Positions 687 to 48,235 of a DNA stretch of 49,859 nucleotides are shown in pieces. The translations under genes and the position numbers were made by a program. Location: NCBI GenBank assembly GCA_018816985.1, contig JAHIVA010000003.1:1-49859 (forward strand). Direction: 5' to 3'. The notes beneath the pieces are model-generated. The model did not search any database and was not told where the DNA came from. It was given only the letters and a program-made list of their open reading frames with translations. Source of the stretch: Patescibacteria group bacterium (GTDB lineage: Bacteria > Patescibacteriota > Minisyncoccia > Phycocordibacterales > UBA9973). Each line of letters opens with the position of its first letter. The stretch's first letter is position 1.

Positions 687-1352
687 CTACTCTAGTTCTT
701 CTTTTTCTTCTTTTAACATTTTTGAACCACTACTTTTAACAAAATCATGATATTCGTTTTTATCTTTGAATTGTTCAAGAACAATATCTAGGGCGAGAAG
801 TTTACCCCAACGATTTTCATTTACAAAATCCTGATAGCTTGAATACGTATATTTATTTTCTTTATTAGCCCACACAGCAATCTCTCTTGGATTTCTGTGA
901 ATATAAGCAGAAACATGGAGAAGTTGAGTGTTGTCTTTTATGTGTACTGCTTTATAAGGTCCCTGGAAAAGATGCCCAGATTTTTGATATTTTGTGTTGT
1001 AATATTTTGTATAGCCATTTAATATTCTTTGCATATACTGAGCAATGCCACCTTCTTTTTCTTCCTTAAGAATTAAATGAAAATGATTTTGCATTAAACA
1101 AAAGGAAACGAGTTCGACATAACAATCTTTGACTATTTTGTTTATAATTTCTTTATCAATGTTCAACACCGAGGGTTGAACAAGTCCCTTGGACAATCTA
1201 TTGATATTTGGAAAGGTAACAGGAGATTGAAAATAAAGAATAATAAAAAGAAAACGAAACCAATCATTGGTATCATGAAAAATAACTTGCTTTCTTGTAC
1301 CACGATTTAAAACATGATAATACTCTCCAGGGGCTATTTTTATATTTCTCAT
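687..1352 (-). mobile_element. REP-associated tyrosine (Y1 HUH) transposase, RAYT-like
   Basis: YYHVLNRG, CLMQNHFHL (HUH), GHLFQGPY, YIHRNP (catalytic Tyr), YSSY; flanked by palindromes. Confidence 0.9.
1160..1182. repeat. REP-like palindrome family A, copy 2, inside the transposase CDS
   Basis: TGTTCAAC-ACCGAGG-GTTGAACA, translated as LVQPSVLNI. Confidence 0.88.
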
Positions 1353-37338: not shown

Positions 37339-37974
37339 ATGGCATTAAGAAAACAAGTTTTCGCTCCAGGTGAATTTTATCATTTATATAATCGCGGTAC
37401 TGAAAAAAGAATAATCTTTTTAGATGAATATGACTATCGTCACTTTTTGTTTTTAATGTATATTTGCAACTCAGAAAAAAGCATCACATTAAGAAATGTT
37501 GGTGAATTTTTTGACCGAGGAGAAACTATCGTTGATATTGGAATCTTTTGTTTAATGCCAAATCATTTTCATATTCTTGCTTATGAAAAAATAGAAAATG
37601 GCATTTCTACATACATGCGTAAATTATTGACTGGATACTCCATGTATTTCAATAAAAAATACAAAAGAACCGGAAAATTGTATGAAGGGGTTTTTAAATC
37701 AATTCACGCAAACAAAGACACATATTTTAAATATCTTTATTCATACGTACATCTAAATCCGGCAAAAATAATAGATAAAAATTGGAGAGAAAACAACAAC
37801 AGAAATTCAGCAAGCTTATTAAAATATGTTTTTTCTTACCCATACTCAAGTCTAAAAGAATATAAAGATAAAAAATTTAGAATCGTAAACCCCTTGCCGT
37901 TTCCTGCTTATTTCAAAAATCTAATTGATCACAAAAAAGAACTTTTGGAGTGGCTTAGTTTTGATGATGCATAG
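37339..37974 (+). mobile_element. REP-associated tyrosine (Y1 HUH) transposase, RAYT-like
   Basis: FYHLYNRG, CLMPNHFHI, GKLYEGVF, YVHLNP, YSS; flanked by palindromes. Confidence 0.9.
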
Positions 37975-38005
37975 GAAACTCCTATGTACATAGGAGTTTC
38001 CTATG
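37970..38005. repeat. Perfect 36-bp palindrome (family D doublet) containing the transposase stop codon
   Basis: CATAGGAAACTCCTATGT|ACATAGGAGTTTCCTATG. Confidence 0.95.
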
Positions 38006-38015
38006 TTAAGTACAA

Positions 38016-42784: not shown

Positions 42785-44272
42785 TTATATCATAGGTTCA
42801 GCCTCTTGGGAAGTTTGATTTTTTTCTTTCTCTTTTCCCTCAGGTGTAGCACTACGAGCGAGCCTCTTTGCCCTACCCTCAATAATTGCTTTCTCTTCTT
42901 CACTTCGAATAATTGTGGCCTCTTCTTCAGCAATAAGTTTAGCTGCATCACCCTTAGGTATTGAATATTTACCACGAGAAGCCTCAATAATTTCTTCTCT
43001 GTATGATGGATGAGTTGGCACAAGAACTCGTAATGTTTCAGCGGAAAACGGATCATATGATTCTCCATCAATGGTCATTTTTATATAAAATTCCCCGACA
43101 GCTAGATTAATCATATCTTTAACATCAAACAAGGGCGCAAATTCCGGTTTCATTTTCACTGCATCTTCACCACCAATCCGAAAAGTGATAACGCTCCCAC
43201 AATTACCCAACACCGCCTGATGAACTCTCGGTAAAATTTGGCCGACATATTGATGAGCAATGGTCAGATTAAGAGCATATTTTCTAGCTTCCGATAAAAT
43301 ATTTTCAAAGGTCTGAGTAACGACATTTTGGAACTCATCCACATATAAATAAAAATCCACCCGATCTTTTTCCGGAATAGCAGCTCGTTCCATTCCGGCT
43401 TGTTTTATTTTGGTTAAAAATATCGAACCAAGAAATGAAGAATTTTCTTCTCCCAAACGTCCTTTAGAAAGATTAATCAGAATTATTTTTTGTTGATTCA
43501 TTAACTCACTGATATCTATTTTATTCTGTTTCTGCCCGAAAATATTTCGGAGCAATGGGTCGGAAAGAAATTGCCCCAGTTTGTTCACTAACGGAATAAT
43601 GGCATCAGTATCAAACTTCTCAGACCAATCAGCGAATTCTATTGCAAAGAATCTTTTCACCATATCGTCGGTAATATACTCCACCACTTTTTGTCTATAA
43701 TTTCTATCCGTTAACATTGAAATCATTCCACGCATTGTAGCATGAGGATAGTCAAGCAGAGCCAAACAAGTAAAACGAAAAACGTGTTCTAATCGAGGTG
43801 TCCAATTCGCTCCAAATTGTTTTTGGAAAACCTCAATTAACCCTTGGGTTAATTGAAATTTAAACATCGGATCAACATTGGCTAGTGGATTAAAGGAGGC
43901 CGGAAAGTCTAAGTCAGTCGGATCAATGAGACAAACATCATTAATCCGTTCCTTAGGTATATAATCAAGAATCGCATTTATTTCATCTCCGTGTGGATCT
44001 ATTAAGCAAATCCCGTGGCCATAAGTAATATCTTGGCGCATAAAAAGCTCAAGTAATTTGCTTTTCCCGACACCGGATTTACCGACAATATAAAGATGGC
44101 GACGACGGTCTAGTCTTTTGATACCAAAAACAAATTTTTTCTCTTCTAAAGAAGCAACGTAATTCGTTCGGCCAATGAAAGAAACATCTTCTGGTTTGAC
44201 CTTTCCAAAAACAGGCAATTCCGGCGGTGGCGGTCCGTATTTTATTATTTGCACTCGATTCTGTTTAATCAT
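42785..44272 (-). CDS. TraG/VirB4/HerA-FtsK-type ATPase
   Basis: GKSGVGKS, IDPHG, FNPL, LYVDEFQN, EARKY, HQ. Confidence 0.88.
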   Translation of the reverse strand: MIKQNRVQIIKYGPPPPELPVFGKVKPEDVSFIGRTNYVASLEEKKFVFGIKRLDRRRHLYIVGKSGVGKSKLLELFMRQDITYGHGICLIDPHGDEINAILDYIPKERINDVCLIDPTDLDFPASFNPLANVDPMFKFQLTQGLIEVFQKQFGANWTPRLEHVFRFTCLALLDYPHATMRGMISMLTDRNYRQKVVEYITDDMVKRFFAIEFADWSEKFDTDAIIPLVNKLGQFLSDPLLRNIFGQKQNKIDISELMNQQKIILINLSKGRLGEENSSFLGSIFLTKIKQAGMERAAIPEKDRVDFYLYVDEFQNVVTQTFENILSEARKYALNLTIAHQYVGQILPRVHQAVLGNCGSVITFRIGGEDAVKMKPEFAPLFDVKDMINLAVGEFYIKMTIDGESYDPFSAETLRVLVPTHPSYREEIIEASRGKYSIPKGDAAKLIAEEEATIIRSEEEKAIIEGRAKRLARSATPEGKEKEKNQTSQEAEPMI

Positions 44273-44296: not shown

Positions 44297-46075
44297 TTAA
44301 TAAACCTCCTTTTGGTAGCATTTCTCGCAATAAATTATCTCCGGTCGGTCGGGAGAGTAGGTAGTTTCAAACTCATTTGGACAAGGTTCATTTCTATGAA
44401 AATGTTCTATTGTATTTTTATATTTTTTATTTGAAGAATAGGCCCCAGCACACTGACATTTACCAGACCAGAGCTTGAACGGATTTCTTTGTTTTAACCT
44501 CTGATAGTGCCGACAATTAGGACAAAAACGTGGTAAAGCAATATTGTTATTTTTAAGAAATTCTAACTCTGACTTAATAATTCTATAGGCTTTCGTACAC
44601 TGAGTTTTTTCATTACCATTATTGGGACAAGCAATAATTTCTTCTAAAATACTTTCCGGCACATCTTTAATATGATCTGACAAATCTTTACTCAAGATAG
44701 TTGTTTGATAATCTTTTTCCAGTGAGTCTCGAAAATTATTCTTGTTTTTAATAATTTCTTTTTTTGTTTTTGGAAAATATTCTTGAGCAATTGTTTCATT
44801 ATAGGCAAAGGGAGATAATTCACTTGGAAAAAATTCTCCATATTTATAAATTAAACCCTTTTTATCTTTATAGGGTAAATTATTCATTTGCTCAATAATT
44901 TTCGGCACAAGCTTTTCATATTCTTCTTTGCTATATTGTTTATTTAAAATACAATACTGTTTACCTCGTAAGCCAACACAACCAAAAAGATTTTTAGAAC
45001 TAAAACACATATATGTGTAATGGGTATTTAAACAACTATGGGTAAAAATAGAAAATAATTGCCTAGATGATTGCACCCCTGCATCTACCGATTCATACAT
45101 TAAAGAAGCTATCCCCCCACCATACATATCATAACTATCTTTTAAGTCCACACAATGAATTATATCTTTTGAATCTTCTACTCCACCATAACTATCAAAA
45201 CATCGTTGGACATTTTTAGAATTCATAATATTATCACCTGTCGCTTCAGTAGATTTTATGATACTGGCATATCTATTGGGAAAATTAGGTGCAAATTTAT
45301 TATATAAATTTACAAATTCGCAAAGTTTTTTATAACTACCAAAATCAAATTCTTTTTTCTTTTTTTCATATTCTTCTTTAGTATATTGAATATTAAAAAT
45401 GCAATGACTTTTATTTCTTAAATTGACACAACCAATACAATCTTGTAGATTTTTACAATGTTTTAGAAAAAAGGAGTCAATAGATTCATCTGTATCGTAA
45501 GAAAAATGAGTTTTATATAAACCTACACACAACGTATCCCAATAAGACAATTCGGATTTATCAACAACATATATATCAAGACAATCCTTTAATCCAACAG
45601 CACCAAATGAATAATGTGTTCGTTCGTTATTATAAGAGGCATATAATAAATAACAATATTTACAATCCAAATTATGATTACCAAAAGGGCTACCTACACA
45701 ATTGACGTTTCCTAAATTAGCTAATGGAGTTTTGTGAAGCAACTCCTGAAACTGCTTAAAAAAGGGCTGAGAAAAATCATAATCCATTTTATAATCAGTT
45801 GGCTCCCATTGGTCGCTCCACCAAATATCATGATCATAGATTATCACATCCGTATCTGGATGAAACATTGTTATTATTTCCTTGCCAGTTTTGGCGCAAG
45901 GTCTTTTAAAAAGTGAACGTTCGTTACGCCAAGTCATCCGGCGAATTAACCGACATTCCGGACAAAAAGTCGGCAAAGGAACTTTGATTTTTTCATAAAA
46001 ATTAAAATCTTCCGGCTCTATGGAAAACGAAGCCTTGCAATTTTGACACACCACATTTTTAGATTTATATTCCAT
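44297..46075 (-). CDS. Cys-rich protein with terminal zinc ribbons
   Basis: CQNC..CPEC at the N-terminus, CPNC..CEKC at the C-terminus, periodic Cys in the middle. Confidence 0.8.
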   Translation of the reverse strand: MEYKSKNVVCQNCKASFSIEPEDFNFYEKIKVPLPTFCPECRLIRRMTWRNERSLFKRPCAKTGKEIITMFHPDTDVIIYDHDIWWSDQWEPTDYKMDYDFSQPFFKQFQELLHKTPLANLGNVNCVGSPFGNHNLDCKYCYLLYASYNNERTHYSFGAVGLKDCLDIYVVDKSELSYWDTLCVGLYKTHFSYDTDESIDSFFLKHCKNLQDCIGCVNLRNKSHCIFNIQYTKEEYEKKKKEFDFGSYKKLCEFVNLYNKFAPNFPNRYASIIKSTEATGDNIMNSKNVQRCFDSYGGVEDSKDIIHCVDLKDSYDMYGGGIASLMYESVDAGVQSSRQLFSIFTHSCLNTHYTYMCFSSKNLFGCVGLRGKQYCILNKQYSKEEYEKLVPKIIEQMNNLPYKDKKGLIYKYGEFFPSELSPFAYNETIAQEYFPKTKKEIIKNKNNFRDSLEKDYQTTILSKDLSDHIKDVPESILEEIIACPNNGNEKTQCTKAYRIIKSELEFLKNNNIALPRFCPNCRHYQRLKQRNPFKLWSGKCQCAGAYSSNKKYKNTIEHFHRNEPCPNEFETTYSPDRPEIIYCEKCYQKEVY

Positions 46076-46088
46076 AACTTTTTTGCAG

Positions 46089-46122
46089 CCTGCCCTGTAC
46101 TAAGCTTTGCTTTAGTATGGGG
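46089..46122 (+). repeat. 34-nt hairpin element with CCTG foot
   Basis: CCTG-CCCTGTACTAAGC-TTT-GCTTTAGTATGGGG, interrupting a CQN|C coding stretch on the minus strand. Confidence 0.75.
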
Positions 46123-46195
46123 TTTTGGCATTGTCGTTTTTCGCTTTTCATTCTATTTTATCATTCTAATATTCTATAGAATTATAGAATAGATT

Positions 46196-48208
46196 TTACT
46201 CCAGAATTTTCTTCAAAACATCTTCCGGTACTTCCTTAGGCTTTTGCGGTACTGGCGTTGAAGTGGGTATTTTTTCTTCAATCAAATTTTTCAACTTCTT
46301 CATATCTTCTGAACCCGCAGAACGGTCAGATGAAACTTTAGTTTTTTTATCTTTAAGAGTATCGAGAGAAACTGGCCTATTTAGACTCGATCTAGTTGGG
46401 GCTGGCTCCGGAGTAGGTTTAGCAGCAAGAGTTTTATCTAAAAATTCCCTTAAGGCTGTATTATCTTTTGGCTTTATGGGAATCGAGATTTTGTCTGGAA
46501 TAGGCTTTTTGTTTTGTTCTTGTTTAGTAAAAACTTTTTTAATAACCCCAATTATTCCAGCTTTACCGACATTTTCAGACCTTTCAGGATACCTATTATC
46601 TTCTTCAATTCTTCCATTTTTTTGCTTGAACTCTATCCCCAAATCAGCCAAGGGTTTAAAAAATTTAGATTCATCATATTTAATTTGATCCGTTCCCCTT
46701 TTTTCCACCTTAACTTCTCCAGATTTTATTTTAGCAATGCATTCTTTACAATAAACCGCCCGGCCCGGCTCAGGCTTAAAAGGCACCGTCTTTTCCAGTT
46801 TGCAAAGCGAACAAATCACCGGAAATTTTTCAAAACTACCACCACTACTGCTACTATTGCCACTATTGCTATCAGATTCATTGCCGAGCGACATTCCGCT
46901 CCATTCATTAATTTCCTGCTCCACCACTTCTTTCGTCCGACAATAAAGTTCACGAGAAGATTTTATAACCTCTTCTTCTATTTTTTTATCACCCGCCTTA
47001 ACCATCGGAGGCAGAGTCTTAGCAGAAAAAGGACGAGACGTTACCCCATCTATCATTAATTTTAAATAAATTTTATAATTCGGCAAATTTACGATATCAG
47101 AAGGAGTAAACTCTGGATCAAATTCTTTTTCCAGAAAATCTGCGTCATCGGAGCCAACACGAAAAACTATCATAGTACCGACGTTACCAAAAACAGCATC
47201 GCGCACCGCAGAACTTTTGTCTGAAATAAGCTGAGCGGTATATTGATGAGCTACTGTCAAATTTAATCTATATTTTCTAGCCTCAGATAAAATACCAGCA
47301 AAAGCATCAGTCACAAAATTTTGAAATTCGTCGACATAAAGATAAAAATCCTTACGATGTTCCTCGGGGATACGCACGCGTTCCATCGCGGCTAATTGAA
47401 TTTTAGTAATAATCATCCCTCCTAAAAGTCCAGAATTATCCTCTCCGATACGCCCCTTGGAAACATTCACTAGAAAAATTTTTCCCTCATTCATAATGTC
47501 AAAAATATTGATAGTACTGATGGATTGCCCAACAACATTCCGAATAATGGAAGTAGAAAGAAATTGCCCGACTTTATTTTGAATCGGCGCAATCGCTTCA
47601 TTCCTGAATTTATCTTGCCAAGCTTCATATTCGTGCACCCAAAAAGCCTTAATTACTGGATCTTTTAAATTTGAAATTATTTTTTGACGGTAATCTTTAT
47701 CTACCAGCATTCGAGGAATTCCAAGAAGCGTTGTCCCTGGCGTATCCAACAACGCTAAGATGCAATTATTTAAAATGTATTCCATTCGGGCGCTCCAGGC
47801 ATTCGCCCAAATTTTAGTAAAAATACCCATCAGTCCGGACGCCACCAAGTGTTTATATTGCGGATCAATTAATTCTAAAACATTAAACCCAATATGATGG
47901 TCCGCGTCCGCGGGATTAAAATAAACAACATCTTTCATTCGATGAGGCGGGATAGCAGAAAGGACAGCCTCCACAAGCTCTCCGTGCGGGTCTACGACAC
48001 AAACTCCTTCACCGTTTTTAATATTTTGGAAAATCATATTGAACATCAGAACGGACTTACCGGTACCAGACTTTCCTAAAATATAAACATGCTGACGCCT
48101 GTCTTTGCGCTTAATACCAAAAAGCTGATTACGGTCACGAAAAGTCGTGAGCCCCAGATAAGTAACGTCCTTATTTATAGGTATTTCCGGCAATTCAATG
48201 TGAGTCAT
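46196..48208 (-). CDS. TraG/VirB4/HerA-FtsK-type ATPase with CxxC-x17-CxxC domain
   Basis: GKSGTGKS, VDPHG, LYVDEFQN, EARKY; CSLC..VPFKP..VYCKEC; TATACT upstream of ATG 48208. Confidence 0.88.
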   Translation of the reverse strand: MTHIELPEIPINKDVTYLGLTTFRDRNQLFGIKRKDRRQHVYILGKSGTGKSVLMFNMIFQNIKNGEGVCVVDPHGELVEAVLSAIPPHRMKDVVYFNPADADHHIGFNVLELIDPQYKHLVASGLMGIFTKIWANAWSARMEYILNNCILALLDTPGTTLLGIPRMLVDKDYRQKIISNLKDPVIKAFWVHEYEAWQDKFRNEAIAPIQNKVGQFLSTSIIRNVVGQSISTINIFDIMNEGKIFLVNVSKGRIGEDNSGLLGGMIITKIQLAAMERVRIPEEHRKDFYLYVDEFQNFVTDAFAGILSEARKYRLNLTVAHQYTAQLISDKSSAVRDAVFGNVGTMIVFRVGSDDADFLEKEFDPEFTPSDIVNLPNYKIYLKLMIDGVTSRPFSAKTLPPMVKAGDKKIEEEVIKSSRELYCRTKEVVEQEINEWSGMSLGNESDSNSGNSSSSGGSFEKFPVICSLCKLEKTVPFKPEPGRAVYCKECIAKIKSGEVKVEKRGTDQIKYDESKFFKPLADLGIEFKQKNGRIEEDNRYPERSENVGKAGIIGVIKKVFTKQEQNKKPIPDKISIPIKPKDNTALREFLDKTLAAKPTPEPAPTRSSLNRPVSLDTLKDKKTKVSSDRSAGSEDMKKLKNLIEEKIPTSTPVPQKPKEVPEDVLKKILE

Positions 48209-48235
48209 ACTTATAAAGTATAGCAAAAAAGCATA

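Follow-up and report, generated by a model that had tools for sequence, protein, structure and literature searches.

Small palindromic repeats are usually regarded as intergenic clutter. IS200/IS605 elements are recognized through single-stranded hairpins, leave clean junctions and make no short target duplication; they have two different subterminal hairpins and a fixed 4- to 5-nt target on the 5' side. Rickettsia palindromic elements (RPE) are in frame and translated. The mobile ORFs of fungal mitochondria, which encode homing endonucleases and are hundreds of bases long, supply a replacement for the gene end, the old one persisting as a relic. At integron attC sites, which stand in arrays beside cassettes, the hairpin base carries the cores RYYYAAC and GTTRRRY. 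REPs are defined by a terminal tetranucleotide, GTAG or CGTC, and TIRYTs (TIRtrons) are RAYT-like genes flanked by their own inverted repeats, according to passages of PMC3733652.

The element described in this report lies in a 49,859-nt stretch of DNA from a Patescibacteria group bacterium (contig JAHIVA010000003.1 of assembly GCA_018816985.1), the whole of which is called the window here. It consists of a 30-nt stem-loop and a 4-nt tail and so resembles the 20- to 40-nt imperfect palindromes, folding as single strands, of the REP/REPIN-RAYT systems; as in those systems, the genomes that hold it are rich in Y1 transposase-like genes. Further shared features, as REPs are presented in the same passages of PMC3733652, are a conserved four-base foot, bulges and mismatches that are unequal between the strands, and occasional insertion inside genes. 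The foot, however, is CCTG/CAGG rather than GTAG or CGTC, there are 1 to 6 copies per genome instead of hundreds, and the copies are single hairpins, not inverted doublets. No RAYT gene flanked by the 34-nt hairpin was found in the searched neighborhoods, and a tandem copy of the target goes with the element, a feature that these passages of PMC3733652 do not describe for REPs. The Y1 genes of this genome, each with a private flanking hairpin, are reminiscent of TIRYTs, but the 34-nt element is not among their flanking repeats, and the link is only that of a candidate enzyme acting in trans.

With IS200/IS605 the element would share recognition through a single-stranded hairpin, and it also resembles them in its clean junctions and in inserting with no short target duplication, but it is one hairpin, without a clear target motif and with a long duplicated target on one side. 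Like RPEs and cyanobacterial small dispersed repeats, it is a tiny palindrome found inside conserved genes and structural RNA genes; unlike in RPEs, the 34 nt break the frame, and a second copy of the gene end keeps the gene alive. The likeness to fungal mitochondrial mobile ORFs is the insertion at a conserved gene end, with a foreign-looking functional end and the displaced end alongside, whereas the element is 34 nt long, noncoding and bacterial. The bypass in T4 gene 60 also involves a short hairpin-forming gap within a reading frame; here, the gap is instead preceded by AAY and followed by GGY or TGY, it is not always in frame, and the element also occurs outside coding sequence. From attC sites the element differs in its CCCC/GGGG base (59 copies), its variable flanks and the absence of arrays. 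A search of the literature outside subscription journals and supplementary files found no account of the element, nor one of REP/RAYT systems in these phyla; the family is apparently uncatalogued so far.

Anatomy of the interrupted gene start

The features of the locus, and two further ORFs of the window that are considered below, are as follows.

46089..46122, minus strand: 34-nt hairpin element, from direct reading, folds, covariation and other copies
46122-46093, minus strand: stem-loop of the element, with 13 pairs, one bulged A, one or two internal mismatches and a 3-nt loop
46092-46089, minus strand: unpaired tail of the element, CAGG
46123..46151, minus strand: decoy start, first part of the relic; ATG (46151-46149) and nine codons ending in CQN (MKSEKRQCQN)
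46076..46088, minus strand: decoy start, second part of the relic; C TGC AAA AAA GTT, i.e., CKKV, abutting the real ATG
46065..46151, minus strand: upstream ORF of 28 codons created by the frameshift, present in the ORF list and ending 8 nt inside the live ORF
44297..46075, minus strand: live gene for a 592-aa Cys-rich protein, with its ATG at 46075
46035..46075, minus strand: uninterrupted second target copy (S2), which is the start of the live gene and aligns to the decoy minus the element
46043..46071, plus strand (antisense): promoter-like site, TTGACA-17 nt-TATATT (11/12), pointing into the hairpin
687-1352: Y1 transposase-like ORF with HUH and Y motifs and a private flanking hairpin
37339-37974: Y1 transposase-like ORF with HUH and Y motifs and a private flanking hairpin

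On the minus strand, the element begins with CCCC and ends with GGGCAGG. The first part of the relic is homologous to the usual N terminus of the paralog family, of the type MxxETKxCQNCKKDF, and the decoy reading frame resumes after the element. The 34 nt are a clean insertion in a dead decoy of the first 14 codons of the Cys-rich gene. The live gene restarts 13 nt past the element, at ATG 46075, and the protein would therefore be made from this second start and not from 46151, the decoy start being left as an upstream ORF of 28 codons whose end coincides with the real one. Deletion of the 34 nt in silico joins CQN to CKKV in frame with ATG 46075; the junction is ambiguous by 1 nt because a C flanks both ends of the element. 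Upstream of ATG 46075 the main frame is closed by a TAG inside the hairpin, and a +1 frameshift fusing the relic to the gene is excluded in the window by the same TAG. The exact 34-mer occurs once in the window and once in the 1.02-Mb genome (up to three mismatches allowed), and a flank-free pattern finds the hairpin at 1 of the 35 RGGGCAGG sites of this genome.

An earlier, sequence-only reading of this DNA had set out the minus-strand layout from ATG 46151 through the element at 46122-46089 and CKKV to ATG 46075, and direct reading bears it out. The 28-aa ORF that it saw ending at 46065 and overlapping the main ATG is in the ORF list, and its statement that exact removal of the 34 nt restores the CQN-C frame holds to within the 1-nt ambiguity. 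Of its two proposals, the one in which a second start rescues a disrupted first is an apt picture of the anatomy. Its statement that there is no target duplication is right for the junction itself but not for the sequence beyond it, since 46075-46035 is a diverged copy of the interrupted stretch: S1 (-34 to +6 at the element site) and S2 (+13 to +54) are identical at 28 of 40 positions. A correction concerns the last C of the relic AAC codon, which belongs to the stem; copies with AAT pair via A (L007).

The 592-aa protein has zinc-ribbon-like CxxC knuckles at both ends and matches no family in Pfam or NCBIfam. Its paralog family is large and mainly confined to this genus, with matches in 37 of 61 genomes (the window's own included), in 35 of the 36 other same-genus genomes searched, and with up to 22 matches per genome. 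The MEYK type of N terminus travels with the element.

Fold, copies and target duplication

Folding of the plus strand gives -21.7 kcal/mol (z, -2.45; 4/200 shuffles as good), compared to -13.7 kcal/mol for the gene-sense strand (z, -0.85; 41/200 shuffles as good). The strands differ because of two positions in this copy where the plus strand has G-T and the sense strand has C-A or A-C, in agreement with the earlier observation that the G-T pairs work only on the strand carrying the CCTG foot. The stem covaries in the 32 copies of the genus described below (13 double-change cells; 0/500 shuffles). It also does so in 59 distinct copies from many lineages, in a test restricted to the two stem pairs that the search pattern had left free (51 double-change cells; 0/500 shuffles); GC, CG, UA and AU occur at one of these free pairs, and CG, GC and UA occur at the other. 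The hairpin is real and more than a product of chance. The family motif consists of CCCC, a variable stem, AAAGC-NNA-GCTT, the complementary stem, TAC-GGGG and the CAGG tail. In the 59 copies, the tail (CCTG on the other strand) is invariant and the base is CCCC/GGGG; in the flanks, CCCC often has an A in front of it and CAGG a pyrimidine behind it, with no fixed tetranucleotide. A REP-like character, with a four-base foot and an imperfect palindrome, is consistent with this wider family. A longer helix, with CAR paired to YTG outside the stem, was rejected for want of covariation. No Rfam covariance model overlapped 46089-46122 at E values up to 10, and a terminator scan called the hairpin on neither strand.

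Within the genus, the same module is present in 32 copies in 23 of 212 genomes, found with a pattern that included the right flank, so that only this gene context was findable. As the sequence-only reading had it, the ends and the target of the element are sharply defined, and they recur: other copies share the boundaries, and the spacing from relic to ATG is 12 nt in 28 of the 32. It is 10 nt in L044 and L049, 11 nt in L062 and 7 nt in the atypical L048, which places at least L044, L049 and L062 out of frame. Homologs with the MKSE type of start were also found, e.g., L016 MKSEIKTCQVCKKEF, so that the sequence-only reading withstands both of the refutations that it had named. The relic frame is open from an ATG or GTG in 28 copies and closed in four, and of the open frames 25 end between -10 and +11 of the real ATG and three end inside the element. 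In most copies the relic CQN codons vary at synonymous positions only, and the fourth relic codon after the element drifts (V, D, I, F, G or A). The second part of the relic is conserved together with the element, the conserved island extending from -9 to about +50.

At five loci the identical 34-nt unit is displaced by 3 nt in the upstream direction within the same relic, where it too is cleanly inserted. Sharing of the module is mosaic, in that one contig holds two paralogs with 100% identity from element base 1 to +160 and no relation leftward, and other paralog pairs share the upstream part and the element alone or the sequence from -9 onward alone. The module is old, occurs in many species and has been shuffled among paralogs; the earlier description of an element "caught" frameshifting a gene start does not fit. 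None of the 212 genus genomes has an empty site for the module. Both source-like and independent groundwater DNA contigs keep the 34 nt, with no skipping joint among the joints listed, and an independent groundwater DNA contig spans 46051-46262 without any difference. This check, made on assembled contigs only (two DNA and two RNA runs), is silent on rare variants, and the RNA contigs are without strand, ends or usable cover of the element. Since no filled/empty polymorphism was seen, we infer mobility from the distribution and have not observed it.

A flank-free scan of species-representative genomes located the hairpin in 101 stretches, and 80 loci with 81 copies were read. Titles of the matching records are mostly those of Nomurabacteria, Paceibacterota, Kaiserbacteria and other Patescibacteria. 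Most records have one copy and one MAG has six, the maximum; all are single hairpins. The gene starts affected are those of dnaX (2 loci), tsaD, a GTPase (2 loci), lepA and ychF. Two gene 3' ends are hit on the opposite strand (L144 and L178), and in a third opposite-strand case, L116, the reading frame is not confirmed. At tRNA targets, the tRNA gene lies 20 to 100 nt downstream of the element in the same orientation. Recurrent neighbors are the Cys-rich family (23 loci), VirD4/TraD-like ATPases (10 loci), lepA (6 loci) and an HTH protein (5 loci) of 210 to 240 aa that matches Pfam in its HTH alone; none is convincing as a partner gene.

At 17 loci, the flanks with the element removed align unbroken to a second copy that starts 0 to 27 nt further on. 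Among 66 testable loci, 21 have a copy of the insertion context on the CAGG side, compared with 1 that has it on the CCCC side, for elements that were chosen with the 3' half of the hairpin fixed in the pattern; a second copy went undetected in 45 of the 66 (about two thirds). The orientation of the element tracks the duplicated copy, not the gene direction. A decoy split by the element, with an intact copy on the CAGG side, is a layout seen in unrelated genes and in tRNAs, and the second start is thus no accident of this one gene. Codon changes between decoy and live copies are 64 synonymous and 14 not at nine loci, and 78 synonymous versus 36 not, in 183 codons, at all 16 loci whose ORF reaches 150 aa or more. 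The divergence arose under protein-level selection, so that the older pairs come from different lineages; its synonymous bias rules out simple in-place decay, and either copy may be foreign. DGR-like adenine mutagenesis between the copies was rejected, as it is third codon positions that differ rather than adenines.

Origin of the layout and its consequences

Taken together, the data establish an element family with a conserved fold, clean insertion, a decoy-then-intact layout and mosaic sharing of the module. The element is probably a low-copy, REP-like mobile hairpin of the small-genome Patescibacteria that is tolerated because the target end is duplicated and that then spreads by recombination. 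It would be a selfish element that travels as a single strand in folded form and is mobilized in trans, with Y1/HUH enzymes (RAYT- or TIRYT-like) as the obvious candidates. The Y1/HUH transposase-like family PF01797 occurs in 155 of the 212 genus genomes and at 14 places in this one, and the two Y1 ORFs of the window encode 211 to 221 aa. Within 4 kb of the 80 loci, 1 of 605 ORFs is Y1-like, and the hairpins that it carries are other ones; no Y1 gene flanked by the 34-nt hairpin was found in the 8-kb neighborhoods of the 80 loci or among the Y1 genes of this genome.

In this reading, insertion would be mechanistically coupled to tandem duplication of the target ("insert and patch"), and the finished module would spread between paralogs and species by homologous recombination, with conserved gene sequence as the arms. 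Known Y1 transposition makes no target duplication, and the "patch" step is thus without known chemistry. More tentatively, these may be a class of "self-patching" selfish hairpins, which invade the conserved end of essential genes or tRNAs and, in a polar process, leave or bring an intact copy on the CAGG side, so that the broken copy is a harmless decoy; the module could move between species by ordinary homologous recombination because its arms are among the most conserved sequences of the cell.

A mobile hairpin would not be needed if the hairpins were immobile fragile or stalling sites, the tandem copies products of replication or repair slippage, and the modules spread by recombination, although we find this unlikely. 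Near-identical pairs (L111, 21/21; L164, 30/31; L175, 22/23) are what recent in-place duplication should leave, and the second copy is without the hairpin, exactly. A near-symmetric hairpin, however, predicts both polarities, and 21 of 22 second copies are on the CAGG side. That distant lineages have kept the unpaired tail, bulge and apical motif points to recognition by a factor, and the 34-nt unit stands at two positions 3 nt apart in one relic. Slippage also leaves unexplained why the same 34 nt are found in tRNA, dnaX, lepA and other genes.

The position at which 25 of the 28 open relic frames end, so close to the real ATG, could mean that the module is kept as a regulator of the gene, either by a leader ORF that opens the hairpin (translational coupling) or by stabilizing or gating the 5' end of the mRNA. 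The stem pairing is under selection while the peptide across the stem changes freely, the CQN codons vary mostly at synonymous positions, and Shine-Dalgarno sites are rare in this genome, the real ATG having the usual A-rich context. Still, we give regulation little chance: four of the 32 copies lack an open relic frame and three stop within the element, with downstream genes not visibly worse. The same hairpin lies upstream of tRNA genes and, reversed, past gene 3' ends, contexts to which a leader-ORF mechanism is inapplicable, and its orientation goes with the duplicated copy rather than the gene.

Antisense control appears improbable. The near-consensus promoter in live codons 2 to 12 would give an RNA of ~50 nt reaching the hairpin and a U-rich tail, which would mask initiation. 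This site is the best promoter-like sequence in 4.4 kb, and 18 of the 32 copies, all with the MEYK-type start, score 9 to 12 of 12 at the same fixed position, against 23 of 600 control segments with scores of 10 or more; yet these 18 are related by descent, and the 14 copies with other types of N terminus are at background (7 to 8 of 12). The better fold of the plus strand, its slight excess of paired cells among the genus copies (90.4% versus 87.7% on the sense strand) and the GGGG then TTTTGG that follow the stem in the window speak for such an RNA; the terminator scan made no call on either strand. Other copies have TTCTG or no run after the stem; half of the copies have a broken U-run, and the shifted and two-hairpin variants lack one, and the promoter context is absent in the wider family. 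The promoter-like site may be incidental.

That the 34 nt are skipped or removed in expression (by a gene 60-type bypass or by RNA or DNA excision), so that the protein starts at ATG 46151, is very hard to credit even though exact removal restores an in-frame CxxC knuckle, the relic CQN and C-K-K codons are conserved with synonymous variation and three copies have a stop codon soon after CQN: the 34-nt gap has no take-off codon that matches a landing codon, there is drift in the fourth relic codon, a TAG in the window stops the in-frame reading over the element, no skipping joint is among the contig joints listed, and the same element occurs in tRNA relics and noncoding contexts. The excision-controlled switch suggested by the sequence-only reading fares no better, with empty sites in 0 of 212 genomes, no contig (the contigs being all that was covered) omitting the 34 nt, a spacing to the next ATG other than 12 nt in 4 of 32 copies and no open relic frame in 4 of 32.

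For this gene family the practical consequence is that the protein start should be annotated at 46075, not 46151. More broadly, distant Patescibacteria share a hairpin with conserved sequence and fold, placed where strongly conserved genes (tRNAs, translation GTPases, dnaX and tsaD) begin or end. If the coupling of insertion to target duplication is mechanistic, it would be a new route for selfish DNA into essential genes with the host unharmed. It would also mark foreign replacement of gene ends in presumed DNA scavengers, and it would account for start-mimicking upstream ORFs, pseudo-tRNA fragments and variant N termini. The "self-patching" reading, if true, would describe a homing-like lifestyle without an intron, intein or endonuclease gene, and one from which new gene starts and leader ORFs could arise, as could N-terminal variants like the MEYK type.

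Anatomy of the split start and its copies in the genus

The 34-nt hairpin of the window splits a gene start, as the sequence-only reading had described, and its coordinates, frames and flanks were confirmed by reading the sequence directly. We refer to the interrupted start as the relic or decoy start and to the intact gene behind it as the live gene.

Features at the split start (window coordinates)
46151, minus strand: ATG opening the relic start, MKSEKRQCQN (sequence read directly)
46122-46089, minus strand: 34-nt element, first bases CCCC, last bases GGGCAGG
Between the element and ATG 46075, minus strand: relic continuation C TGC AAA AAA GTT, CKKV (sequence read directly)
44297-46075, minus strand: 592-aa ORF, the live gene, with its ATG at 46075 (ORF list)
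46065-46151, minus strand: 28-codon ORF from the decoy ATG (ORF list)
42785-44272 and 46196-48226, both minus strand: two VirD4/TraD-like coupling-ATPase paralogs flanking the Cys-rich live gene

Neither Pfam nor NCBIfam has a family for the 592-aa protein, which is one of a large family of paralogs, mainly confined to the window's genus, that was matched in 37 of the 61 genomes searched (the window's own counted) and in 35 of 36 other same-genus genomes, with up to 22 matches per genome, frequently in tandem. Homologs do carry MKSE-type starts, and the family's usual N-terminus is MxxETKxCQNCKKDF...; this identifies the short ORF before the element as the relic of an ordinary family start, and the CKKV past the element as its continuation. 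VirD4/TraD-like ATPases accompany Cys-rich family members at 10 of 80 other loci, and the ATPase upstream of the window's Cys-rich gene has a CxxC-x17-CxxC treble-clef finger.

The hairpin folds at -21.7 kcal/mol (z -2.45) on the plus strand and more weakly, at -13.7 kcal/mol (z -0.85), on the gene-sense strand; two positions that are G-T on one strand of this copy become C-A or A-C on the opposite strand. Neither the window nor the 1.02-Mb genome (G000) holds a second occurrence of the exact 34-mer, and in G000 a flank-free pattern likewise finds the window copy as its sole match. Inverted repeats of the TTCTATAGAAT/TAGAAT type run at 46152-46195 (minus strand), upstream of the decoy ATG, and similar repeats abut hairpin-free starts of the live protein's MEYK type on the upstream side (L080, L087 and L093; L numbers denote loci in other genomes); they may be a promoter or operator in common. 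Shine-Dalgarno-like motifs precede only about one-tenth of 450 long ORFs in G000, and an A-rich start context is usual.

A search of 212 genomes of the genus, including three unpublished genomes that were tallied only, found 32 copies in 23 genomes, a count restricted to the Cys-rich gene context because the pattern comprised the element and its right flank. The relic lies 12 nt from the real ATG in 28 of the 32 copies (10, 10, 11 and 7 nt in the others), in line with the element boundaries proposed from the window. Its frame is open from ATG or GTG in 28 copies, ending between -10 and +11 of the real ATG in 25 and inside the element in 3; it is closed in four, three of which have stops, with the element of the fourth (L048) placed after a paralog's stop codon. 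The stem covaries (13 double-change cells over three pairs; 0/500 shuffles) and the peptide across it varies along with it, so pairing rather than coding is conserved. The share of paired cells is 87.7% for the sense strand against 90.4% for its complement, a small preference, much of which is due to one change common to nine copies.

The idea that the hairpin might act as an excision-controlled switch finds no support. Both the likely source run and an independent groundwater DNA run have contigs that retain the 34 nt, and the independent contig covers 46051-46262 with zero differences from the window; no joint skipping the 34 nt was found among the joints listed for contigs of the DNA runs, which rare variants could escape; and in 0 of the 212 genomes is the relic start joined directly, insert-free, to a MEYK-type start. 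Nor was the element caught in the act, given its 32 copies across the genus. What stands of the sequence-only interpretation is a disrupted start backed by a second one.

A conserved island surrounds the element from about -9 to +50, and comparison of paralogs shows this module to be shuffled among them. Two paralogs from a single contig have full identity from the first base of the element up to +160, with unrelated sequence to its left; one pair has the upstream part, relic and element in common and genes that differ past the ATG; another has identity only from -9 onward. The closest whole-protein relatives of the window protein (74% and 72% identity) are without the module, and remoter paralogs (59%, 49% and 47%) carry it. 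Among other members with MEYK-type starts (40 loci fetched, 39 readable), the same 34-nt unit is displaced 3 nt upstream within the relic at 5 loci, a ~62-nt two-hairpin insert follows CQNC at 7 loci plus 2 partial ones, a third hairpin type occurs at 3 and window-like variants at 2. The ~62-nt insert has 8-9-nt inverted ends and occupies the same relic start (L066, L067, L075-L077, L083, L090, L020), and in some copies the relic frame is open throughout it.

The wider hairpin family and candidate enzymes

One genome per species was scanned with the apical motif and the element's 3' half only, which gave 101 stretches; 80 loci with 81 copies were read. By deposited title, 19 loci are Saccharibacteria (a label from automated assemblies), 17 Nomurabacteria, 13 Paceibacterota or Paceibacteria, 8 'Patescibacteria group' and 4 Kaiserbacteria, with single loci from Wolfebacteria, Zambryskiibacteriota, Spechtbacterales, Parcubacteria and Minisyncoccia; the remainder are 6 from unnamed bacteria, 6 from one Elusimicrobia-titled MAG and 2 under other labels. 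The 5' arm was absent from the search pattern and yet, in 59 distinct copies, complements the fixed 3' arm; the two free stem pairs covary, one through four and the other through three pair types (51 double-change cells; 0/500 shuffles). These copies also keep the CAGG tail, the bulged A and a single internal mismatch close to the base. The element is a member of a widespread REP-like hairpin family; it has no match in Rfam, and the family is, as far as could be found, not yet catalogued. Published work on REP, RAYT and TIRYT (for example PMC3733652) concerns other phyla, and we found no literature on such elements in these phyla in a paper library outside subscription journals and supplementary files.

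The Elusimicrobia-titled MAG holds six near-identical copies (L117, L133, L163, L165, L180, L181), all with ATTCA in front and in recurring AT-rich surroundings; they reflect a burst in this genome or else a binning artefact. At 5 of the 80 loci (L161, L171, L158, L126, L170), a gene lying 0.5-1.7 kb from the element encodes a protein of 210-240 aa that has a conserved LYWAEG motif and, at its N-terminus, an HTH, the only part that Pfam sees.

The Y1 transposase family PF01797 is present in 155 of the 212 genus genomes and at 14 places in G000. Five RAYT/TIRYT-like ORFs in G000 are each flanked by a private hairpin, and two of the five lie inside the window.

RAYT/TIRYT-like genes and their hairpins (window coordinates)
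687-1352, minus strand: RAYT/TIRYT-like Y1 transposase gene, 221 aa, HUH and Y motifs
664-688, 1160-1184 and 1381-1405: TGTTCAAC-type hairpins of the 687-1352 gene, two flanking it and a third within the ORF
37339-37974, plus strand: second RAYT/TIRYT-like gene, 211 aa
37289-37328 and 37970-38008: palindrome pair, 37-39 nt, flanking the 37339-37974 gene and unlike the TGTTCAAC-type hairpin

From anatomy and co-occurrence we infer a Y1 enzyme as a candidate mobiliser of the element, and as a candidate only, because none of the five ORFs in G000 is flanked by the 34-nt element and just 1 of 605 ORFs near the 80 loci is Y1-like, that one bearing other hairpins. A predicted antisense promoter driving transcription into the hairpin has a low probability: a near-consensus site at 46043-46071 on the antisense strand points into the hairpin and recurs in 18 of the 32 genus copies, all with MEYK-type starts, being absent from the other 14, but we rank it low because the wider family is without such a site.

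Decoy and intact copies of the target

At 17 loci, once the element is removed, its flanks align unbroken to a second copy just downstream. The interrupted copy covers 14-79 nt on the element's left and 4-28 nt on its right, and the intact copy begins 0-27 nt later. The targets are gene starts (those of the Cys-rich family, tsaD, lepA and ychF, and at two loci each those of dnaX and a GTPase), the 3' ends of opposite-strand genes (L144, L178), a further opposite-strand locus with an unconfirmed reading frame (L116), and tRNAs, with intact copies in the same orientation 20-100 nt downstream. The window has this signature, with 28 of 40 positions identical between the decoy at -34 to +6 and the live start at +13 to +54. 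In an unbiased two-sided test, the insertion-site context was copied on the CAGG side at 21 of 66 loci and on the CCCC side at 1 of 66; this polarity is a property of the element and not of gene expression, because the genes occur on either strand.

Between decoy and live copies, changed codons at nine loci are 64 synonymous and 14 nonsynonymous; in the wider set of 16 loci, comprising every one with an ORF of 150 aa or longer, they are 78 and 36 in 183 codons. This wider set takes in Cys-rich copies in which the decoy start and the live start belong to different paralog types. In-place decay of a dead copy is expected to give mostly nonsynonymous changes, so the older pairs diverged while both copies were working genes, each in its own lineage, and recombination then imported one of the two. 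Near-identical pairs (21/21, 30/31 and 22/23) are as expected for recent local events. What marks the family is a doubled target: a decoy accompanied on one fixed side by an intact copy.
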